Made by a program: the position numbers and the translations under genes. From UHGV virus genome UHGV-0211740: 64,000 nucleotides of DNA; one strand, 5' to 3'. The stretch is from a virus. The notes beneath the pieces were generated by a model. The model was not told the DNA's origin and did no database searches. It saw only the letters and a program-made list of their open reading frames with translations. Positions 12,887 through 13,569 of the stretch are shown here, one piece after another (position 1 is the first letter of the stretch; every line of letters starts with the position of its first letter).

Positions 12887-13285
12887 ATGATTTCAGTTTT
12901 AACATGGCTGGGCAGGTATAAAGGGGTCATAAAAGGTTTAGTTTTTGCAGCAACTCTTGGTATAGCCTATCTTGGTGCCGTATATTGGTTTAATTCTAAG
13001 CTTGACACTGCTTACCAGGAGGGTGTGACAGCAACAGAGTTGAAGTGGGAACGGATCCTTGATCAGCAACAAAAGCAAGCTGACAGGATTAAAATGGGCC
13101 ATGCAGAGGAGGTTAAAAACCTTGAAAAATCCCTTTCTGACCTGCAGGATAAATTAAGTATAGCTGAGAAGGCAGGTAAAGAAAAGCAGATTATTTACCT
13201 CCAATCGCCTGAAGGTAAGAAGTCAACACTTCCTGATCAGCTTATAGAGATTTATAATGAGAGTATCAATCAGGAGGGTCGATGA
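12887..13285 (+). CDS. putative i-spanin (Rz-like)
   Basis: N-terminal transmembrane segment VLTWLGRYKGVIKGLVFAATLGIAYLGAVYWF followed by a charged coiled-coil-like region; stop overlaps ATG of the lipoprotein gene (ATGA). Confidence 0.5.
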   Translation: MISVLTWLGRYKGVIKGLVFAATLGIAYLGAVYWFNSKLDTAYQEGVTATELKWERILDQQQKQADRIKMGHAEEVKNLEKSLSDLQDKLSIAEKAGKEKQIIYLQSPEGKKSTLPDQLIEIYNESINQEGR

Positions 13286-13569
13286 GAGTTGCTGCACTAC
13301 TTATTATGTGCTTGTTATTATGTGGGTGTACAACCAGCGTTGAGAGAGAATACAAGATTGACCCTCCGGATGTAGGGAGGTTGATTGTTAAACCACCAGA
13401 GGGTGCCATGAAACCACCTGCTAAAGCCGTGCCTTTGAAGAAGGGTGCCCCGGATGCGGTGAATTCTGGCATTATGAGGGATAATAACCTATCTTGCAGT
13501 AATGATAGAGCTAAATTAATCATTTTGCAAGACTATATTAGAACACTGTTTCCAAAGGAGAGAGGTTAA
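13282..13569 (+). CDS. putative o-spanin (Rz1-like lipoprotein)
   Basis: 95 aa; signal peptide with lipobox-like LLLCGC, then Pro-rich mature region (KPPEGAMKPPAKAVP) and C-terminal Cys. Confidence 0.55.
   Translation: MRVAALLIMCLLLCGCTTSVEREYKIDPPDVGRLIVKPPEGAMKPPAKAVPLKKGAPDAVNSGIMRDNNLSCSNDRAKLIILQDYIRTLFPKERG

Follow-up and report, generated by a model that had tools for sequence, protein, structure and literature searches.

Dispersed lysis genes are textbook knowledge for phages T4 and T7. The T7 endolysin gene (3.5) is found among DNA-metabolism genes, and its product, T7 lysozyme, is an amidase. The T4 spanin genes (pseT.3/pseT.2) are linked neither to the holin gene t nor to the endolysin gene e (PMC6139136). 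Similar layouts have been described for rV5-like coliphages. In CB7 the spanin pair lies beside terL and outside any lysis cassette, which makes identification of the holin difficult (PMC7344957). The papers on LL12, Gotham, KPP-1 and BME3 describe a holin that is unidentified or distant, and the statements on layout for phiSalP219 and BME3 are similar to those for CB7, Gotham and KPP-1. The subject of this report is the lysis genes in a stretch of 64,000 nucleotides from the virus genome UHGV-0211740 (the window), in particular a putative spanin pair at 12887-13569. It is very likely that this rV5-like coliphage window holds two of the three standard Gram-negative lysis components, an endolysin and a two-component spanin, at separate loci, and that a holin of canonical form is found nowhere in the window. 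The observation is correct but ordinary, in that the scattered layout, missing holin included, is already published for rV5-like phages. The three genes that carry it are:

1701-2171, minus strand: lambda R-type endolysin (lytic transglycosylase), 156 amino acids, with matches in the Protein Data Bank (PDB) and PHROGs
12887-13285, plus strand: i-spanin, predicted type II inner-membrane protein, 132 amino acids, phrog_4297
13282-13569, plus strand: o-spanin, predicted outer-membrane lipoprotein, 95 amino acids, phrog_1267

The endolysin matches lambda lysozyme R (PDB 1AM7/3D3D) over residues 4-154 with an E-value of 3e-56 and the PHROG endolysin family phrog_90 with 5e-55. The catalytic Glu19 of lambda R is kept, the WSEGTD motif reading YSEGTD, and the records of relatives label the homologue endolysin or lysozyme. 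Hydropathy was scanned for all open reading frames (ORFs) of at least 35 amino acids and then, in a more sensitive pass, for about 78 strand-consistent genes. No hydrophobic segment was found in the 156 residues of the endolysin, hence neither an N-terminal signal nor a signal-anchor-release (SAR) domain, and because of this the enzyme is predicted to be cytoplasmic and holin-dependent.

Both genes of the pair match PHROG families named 'Rz-like spanin', the i-spanin over its full length (phrog_4297, E=4e-46) and the o-spanin with an E-value of 2.6e-23 (phrog_1267). The i-spanin starts at the ATG at 12887, with a GGAG ribosome-binding site 8 nucleotides upstream. It has a single N-terminal transmembrane domain (TMD), about residues 14-35. 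The first 16 residues carry a net charge of +3 and the 20 residues past the TMD one of -2, and the topology predicted by hydropathy and the charge rule only is N-in/C-out, type II. An AlphaFold2 (AF2) single-sequence model displays a helix at 5-100, a linker at 101-114 and a second helix at 115-130, with a mean predicted local distance difference test (pLDDT) score of 73. The o-spanin has a lipobox, LLIMCLLLCG/C, which fits the PROSITE-type pattern and places the lipobox Cys at residue 16; Thr instead of Asp at +2 points to outer-membrane sorting. The mature o-spanin would have 80 amino acids, nine of them Pro (11%), and one further free periplasmic Cys (C72). As a general rule, such a Cys in an o-spanin serves homotypic disulfide linkage (PMC6139136).

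The two spanin genes share a 4-nucleotide ATGA start/stop overlap, which makes the architecture 'separated' under the criteria of Kongari 2018 (PMC6139136), and the stop of the o-spanin gene overlaps the ATG of terL at 13569 (TAATG). Translation of the pair thus appears to be coupled to that of terL, where the late packaging and head genes begin. Records of relatives name both genes, as i-spanin in inoa, Murica and nomo and as i-/o-spanin or Rz-like spanin in inoa, Murica, APCEc02 and the rV5 RefSeq entry. It is conceivable in principle that the pair is not a spanin and that an unrelated membrane protein and an unrelated lipoprotein precede terL, for instance in place of a small terminase subunit, since the i-spanin contains no Cys, neither protein has a Pfam or NCBIfam match and the spanin assignment in the rV5-like lineage is sequence-based. 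This is highly improbable, however, because the pair has all the features by which spanins are recognised in sequence, the periplasmic Cys is carried by the o-spanin as in T4, and an 'rv5' family of two-component spanins with seven phages is listed by Kongari 2018 (PMC6139136), that is, curated by the very group that defined spanins.

The endolysin and spanin genes are separated by 10.7 kb and lie on opposite strands, and nowhere in the window are holin, endolysin and spanin genes contiguous as in a classic lysis cassette. Hydrophobic segments were found in five small proteins only: the two spanins, a protein of 68 amino acids beside the endolysin, and two proteins of 104 (51652-51966) and 88 amino acids (53111-53377) in the tail-fibre region. 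No small protein with at least two strong TMDs was found in the 64-kb window by the hydropathy scan, and the 68-, 88- and 104-amino-acid proteins match no holin family in Pfam, PHROGs or NCBIfam. No holin-like gene flanks the endolysin or the spanins, the 68-amino-acid protein being the sole neighbour with a TMD. A first-pass annotation of the window had proposed a lambda R-like endolysin on the minus strand, an i-spanin and a lipoprotein o-spanin on the plus strand beside terL about 11 kb away, and no typical holin at either locus. These proposals are borne out by the 1AM7 match with its conserved Glu, by the PHROG matches, TMD, lipobox and gene overlaps of the spanins, by the distance and by the hydropathy scan together with the family searches. 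Gene identities, topology signals, gene coupling and conservation, as well as the absence of a canonical holin, were observed in this way.

Megablast searches with three regions of the window (1-4200, 12000-16500 and 49500-54500) rendered more than 100 full-length matches, all of them rV5-like coliphages with 90-98% identity, classified in the subfamily Vequintavirinae and the genus Vequintavirus. Nucleotide identities of 95-97.5% to Vequintavirus records support this placement. The best relative is OX460980 (97-98% identity in the three regions), and in local blastn comparisons the window runs colinear to rV5 (NC_011041) positions 10308-73526 in reverse complement. The lysis genes, their order, overlaps and neighbours are the same in rV5 and other members of Vequintavirus, with 90-97% nucleotide identity (gp89 lysin and ORF66/67 spanins in rV5; gp90, gp65 and gp66 in LL12). 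The endolysin gene comes after the DNA ligase gene, the spanin genes abut terL and the holin is unidentified there as well. The differences are limited to the intervening content of terL, an extra ORF of 202 amino acids near the RNA ligase gene and a few amino acid changes in the spanin signal sequences.

The T4 system (e, t, pseT.3/pseT.2, rI, rIII) is similar in having unlinked endolysin, holin and spanin genes, spanins whose architecture is of the separated type and the relevant periplasmic Cys in the o-spanin, and homologues of rIIA and rIIB exist in rV5. The proteins are not homologous, however: the enzyme here is an R-type transglycosylase and not T4 lysozyme, no homologue of the T4 holin T was found (hhalign probability 0.1% for the 104-amino-acid protein) and no RI was identified. 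In the T4 record the gene order is 37, 38, t, so that the holin gene comes after a tail-fibre assembly gene. The T7 record has the order fibre, holin 17.5, terS, spanins 18.5/18.7, terL; the T7 system (3.5, 17.5, 18.5/18.7) thus shares with the window a spanin pair immediately upstream of terL, but the T7 spanin genes are embedded and are situated between terS and terL. Neither the T7 holin nor the T7 i-spanin resembles in sequence the window proteins that were compared with them. In comparison with the lambda cassette S-R-Rz/Rz1, the endolysin is homologous to R (E=3e-56) and the spanins are predicted to be functional analogues with the same topology. In contrast to lambda, there is no cassette and no S-like holin here, the spanin genes are separated and not embedded, and the i-spanin lacks the Cys of Rz.

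The endolysin gene is located in the DNA-metabolism block, a position similar to that of T7 gene 3.5, and has the following neighbours on its own strand:

2296-3579, minus strand: DNA ligase, upstream of the endolysin
1431-1637, minus strand: exported or anchored protein of 68 amino acids (rV5 ORF90 family), downstream of the endolysin, phrog_4641

The 68-amino-acid protein (phrog_4641, E=8e-28) has a hydrophobic N-terminal segment at residues 4-22 with a Kyte-Doolittle (KD) value of 2.7, followed by a signal-peptidase-like site (VFA/G), and also a lipobox-like FMAAC and four Cys. The description of this protein in the first-pass annotation, as a small secreted protein that follows the endolysin, is therefore reasonable. 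Its gene lies directly downstream of the endolysin gene on the same strand, it is highly conserved within the genus, and the strong hydrophobic segment together with Cys residues that suggest a periplasmic disulfide would suit a partner of the endolysin, either a holin with one TMD or an antiholin resembling T4 RI. Such a role is nevertheless improbable. Homologues of the protein (phrog_4641, E=2e-24) keep their position in the block from ligase to exonuclease in SSBI34 and ChuuTotoro, a block that lacks an endolysin there; the adjacency is therefore incidental and due to an insertion, and on the basis of this synteny the ORF was rejected as a partner. In addition, a predicted promoter, P90, is annotated between the two genes in the rV5 record, and the protein has a signal peptide that is likely cleavable and no charged C-terminal tail. 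By comparison of these blocks, the R-like endolysin gene looks like a lone insert, specific to the genus, that separates the ligase gene from a conserved gene for a small exported protein that is probably not a lysis partner.

The other small proteins with hydrophobic segments are encoded in the fibre region:

51056-51640, plus strand: tail-fibre assembly protein (Tfa), Caudo_TAP 8e-12, immediately upstream of the gene for the 104-amino-acid protein
51652-51966, plus strand: single-pass membrane and coiled-coil protein of 104 amino acids (rV5 gp31 family), phrog_5345
53111-53377, plus strand: weakly hydrophobic protein of 88 amino acids (rV5 gp29 family), phrog_1322 'membrane protein' 5e-32

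Both of the small proteins are conserved across Vequintavirinae, and the first-pass annotation had suggested that membrane proteins of this region could control lysis. This holds for the 104-amino-acid protein as a candidate but probably not for the 88-amino-acid protein. The latter has KD peaks of just 1.1-1.3 and no Pfam match. Its homologue in phi92-like phages and in Pseudomonas phage PsgM04F is encoded between a tail protein gene and a baseplate wedge gene, abutting the latter. Because of the weak hydrophobicity and the baseplate-gene context in phi92-like phages it was down-weighted as a holin and is probably a component of the tail or baseplate module. A suspected likeness to the T7 holin ('LPEWYAWIYAP' and 'LNEWFYVAAIA') was rejected, with a BLASTP E-value of 0.31.

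The 104-amino-acid protein has one TMD at residues 5-23 (KD 1.9) and ends in HSKR. It is modelled by AF2 as one continuous helix over residues 2-103 (pLDDT 65), and its profile matches coiled coils alone in PDB. The family, with about 125 clusters, is confined to large myoviruses of these groups, and its gene comes after Tfa in Vequintavirinae, phi92-like, Aeromonas and Pseudomonas phages. As T4 and T7 both have the holin gene after fibre genes, this protein is the sole sensible candidate for a holin within the window. Several observations suit that role: the protein is small with one strong TMD and a highly charged tail, basic C-termini are found in all members of the family, as is usual for small holins with a TMD, the gene lies in the late structural operon right behind Tfa, and the positional precedents (T4 t after gene 38, T7 17.5 after gene 17) were verified in the records. 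Moreover, the family occurs in phages for several of which the papers give no identified or adjacent holin, and the protein is missing from the small set of rV5 virion proteins that mass spectrometry revealed.

T4 T has an N-in topology with a large periplasmic C-terminal domain. The positive-inside rule, on the other hand, puts the 104-amino-acid protein N-out/C-in with its coiled coil in the cytoplasm. Likeness to the T7 holin and to T4 T was rejected (no similarity to the former and the hhalign probability given above for the latter), and there is no similarity to the holin families of Pfam, PHROG and NCBIfam. None of the sources examined labels any member of the family a holin; the gene is always in the fibre module and never adjoins an endolysin gene, and a coiled coil anchored in the membrane and encoded near fibre and chaperone genes could just as well have a role in the assembly of fibres. 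On balance it is unlikely, though worth consideration, that the missing holin is this protein in a position like that of T4 t or T7 17.5.

Homologues of the 104- and 88-amino-acid proteins flank a protein with four TMDs (phrog_7451) in PVP-SE1 (gp44-43-42) and CR9 (gp029-031). This protein (PVP-SE1 gp43, CR9 gp030) is found neither in rV5 nor in the window, and PVP-SE1 gp43 matches no holin family in Pfam or PHROG scans. Its slot in the sister genera is here filled by the second of two short tail-fibre genes. These paralogues, at 50001-51041 and 52053-53099 on the plus strand, have 43% identity (E=3e-94) and flank the Tfa and 104-amino-acid protein genes.

The absence of the four-TMD protein makes a replacement holin plausible, and two genus-specific proteins with two TMDs have been put forward in rV5-like phages. 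One is rV5 ORF129 (78 amino acids, rV5 94058-94294), the holin proposed by Kropinski 2013 (PMC3606486), and the other is rV5 ORF183 (123 amino acids), which corresponds to the 'putative holin' bas55_0113 of the BASEL collection. In the closest relative their homologues are about 19 kb past the left end and about 36 kb past the right end of the window, respectively. The further idea in the first-pass annotation, that the holin is a product of the fibre region or of genes outside the window, fits the literature in that both proposals map outside. Homologues of ORF129, ORF183, gp002, rIIA and the four-TMD protein of PVP-SE1 and CR9 were searched for in the window and none was found.

Taken jointly, the chance that one of these two proteins is the holin comes close to even but falls somewhat short of it. 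Two strongly hydrophobic TMDs are found in each, and the C-terminus of ORF129 is rich in K and R; both occur in nearly every Vequintavirus record (116 and 119 records), including OX460980, and both are confined to the genus that uniquely has the R-like endolysin. However, the assignments are purely topological, with no holin-family match in Pfam and PHROG scans, the published proposals are at odds with one another, and the authors of the papers on LL12, Gotham and KPP-1 refrained from naming a holin. ORF129 is also unusually variable (53-100% identity) for a genus with 90-97% identity at the nucleotide level. ORF183 is in the transcription unit of genes 164-238, amid genes for DNA polymerase, helicase and rIIB, a context that suggests early expression; such timing would be unusual for a holin and in keeping with an Imm-like exclusion protein. 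No Vequintavirus transcriptome literature that could be used for timing the candidates was found. The probability left over after the 104-amino-acid protein and the two-TMD proteins is an unassigned remainder.

A second cell-wall enzyme is also encoded outside the window. The rV5 gp002 gene (rV5 1980-2480, beside rIIA) encodes a SleB-like protein (Hydrolase_2, 2e-19). The protein begins with a Sec signal peptide of the usual kind (MKIKIFAIILSAFLSLPVVA/AP) and is predicted to be a second, exported muralytic enzyme. Papers report a SleB-like hydrolase in BME3 and PVP-SE1 also, and in the phi92-like SKA64 Hydrolase_2 is reported as the only endolysin. Furthermore, a CB7 protein discussed with the cell-wall enzymes, apparently the SleB-like one, was toxic when expressed (PMC7344957). 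These observations would fit a lysis driven mainly by the Sec-exported hydrolase, in which the R-like enzyme may be a second, accessory endolysin and a canonical large-hole holin perhaps does not exist.

This is quite unlikely, because a cytoplasmic R-type endolysin still requires a path across the inner membrane, and exported endolysins still need a holin or pinholin that depolarises the membrane, as SAR and signal-peptide endolysins do in known systems. No holin-like ORF lies beside gp002 in rV5. The first-pass annotation had considered a canonical holin beside a second endolysin just outside the window, and rV5 has the gp002 hydrolase but no such holin adjacent to it. An ORF with two TMDs that overlaps the SleB-like gene, as reported for CB7, was sought in rV5 and none was found on the coding strand.

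The spanin genes are surrounded by the following features:

11660-12468, plus strand: six tRNA genes (Arg-TCT, Tyr-GTA, Ser-TGA, Thr-TGT, Met-CAT and Pro-TGG), called by ARAGORN, upstream of the spanins
12837-12869, plus strand: terminator-like GC-rich hairpin followed by U6, ending 18 nucleotides before the i-spanin start and containing the ATG at 12851
13569-15999, plus strand: terL, split, with exons at about 13569-13997 and 14911-15999
14153-14803: Endonuclease VII-type ORF in the intervening sequence of terL, Endonuclease_7 4e-21

An ORF of 90 amino acids without a TMD (12509-12781) also lies upstream of the spanins. The hairpin has a free energy of -16.9 kcal/mol and an 11-bp stem followed by UUUUUU, with a z-score of just -1.6 against shuffled sequences. 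The ATG at 12851 was rejected as a start of the i-spanin gene and is regarded as spurious because it lies within this hairpin and has no ribosome-binding site. A gap at about 12030-12228 in the tRNA cluster corresponds to 'tRNA-OTHER' or 'tRNA-Lys' in relatives and is not called here by ARAGORN or Rfam, and the tRNA-Ser of the cluster is missed by Rfam.

The first ORF of terL matches Terminase_6N positions 2-104 and the second matches positions 117-211 of the same family and Terminase_6C. A split terL is likewise annotated in relatives, and the gene is intron-disrupted according to the LL12 paper. An Rfam scan for a group I intron in terL gave no such model at threshold, the tRNAs being the sole threshold matches. 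Compared with rV5, terL in the window is longer by about 580 bases at 14211-14792, and the second insertion of about 980 bp with an HNH gene (rV5 58831-59811) is missing; the intervening content therefore varies among close relatives.

Some observations concern the phage more generally. About 16-20 GenBank records carry the name 'Campylobacter phage' (MG0656xx, host C. jejuni). Over the regions tested they share about 92-95% identity with the window and, judged by this similarity, look like rV5-like coliphages under a Campylobacter host label. A segment of some 660 bp without rV5 counterpart, with the gp079 homologue on one side and the RNA ligase gene on the other, holds the ORF of 202 amino acids (6060-6668, minus strand). 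This ORF has no Pfam match and may be a mobile or homing-type insertion. An ORF of 50 amino acids (62046-62198, minus strand) corresponds to rV5 ORF23, which is annotated in rV5. It has a hydrophobic N-terminus and overlaps the ORF22 homologue, and its status as a gene is doubtful.

The reading with most support is a standard lysis in three steps from unlinked genes, for which we infer the timing of expression, the order of events and the identity of the holin. The R-type endolysin would build up harmlessly in the cytoplasm, while the inner-membrane i-spanin and its lipoprotein partner of the outer membrane, the o-spanin, would form complexes that span the periplasm and are restrained by the peptidoglycan mesh. 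At a programmed time, a holin encoded elsewhere would permeabilise the inner membrane. The wall could then be reached and degraded by the endolysin, and the freed spanins would fuse the inner and outer membranes. Since only the holin sets the timing and the other components are merely expressed beforehand, the lysis genes need not cluster, as is the case in T4 and T7, and since endolysin and spanins are inert until triggering, their map positions would be unconstrained.

A number of points weigh against this reading. All assignments were made from homology and from signals in the sequence. Between the hairpin at 12837-12869 and the i-spanin gene there was no promoter-like site to be seen, and with a terminator-like structure 18 nucleotides ahead of that gene the transcription unit of spanins and terL is uncertain; it may rely on read-through or on an unrecognised late promoter. 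There is no agreed holin, as ORF129 and ORF183 are in conflict, and the pathway is incomplete to that extent. Finally, a SleB-like hydrolase with a Sec signal is conserved across the wider lineage, and lysis may therefore not hinge solely, or even mainly, on the R-like enzyme.

The layout described here was re-derived from raw sequence and matters little in itself because it is already present in GenBank annotation and in several papers on rV5-like phages. The practical value lies in the fact that rV5-like phages are common in therapy and biocontrol collections while there are two conflicting published guesses about their lysis timer, the holin. The candidates are narrowed by the lone genus-specific insertion of the endolysin, by the 68-amino-acid protein that is probably not a partner, by the absent four-TMD protein and by the 104-amino-acid protein in a slot like that of T4 t. 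That the family of rV5 gp31, PVP-SE1 gp44 and phi92 gp149 is the holin, or an essential holin partner, of rV5-like and phi92-like myoviruses is a tentative suggestion with the odds well against it. If true, it would be a new holin family with a predicted N-out/C-in topology, and it would extend the placement of the holin gene after the fibre genes that is seen in T4 and T7.

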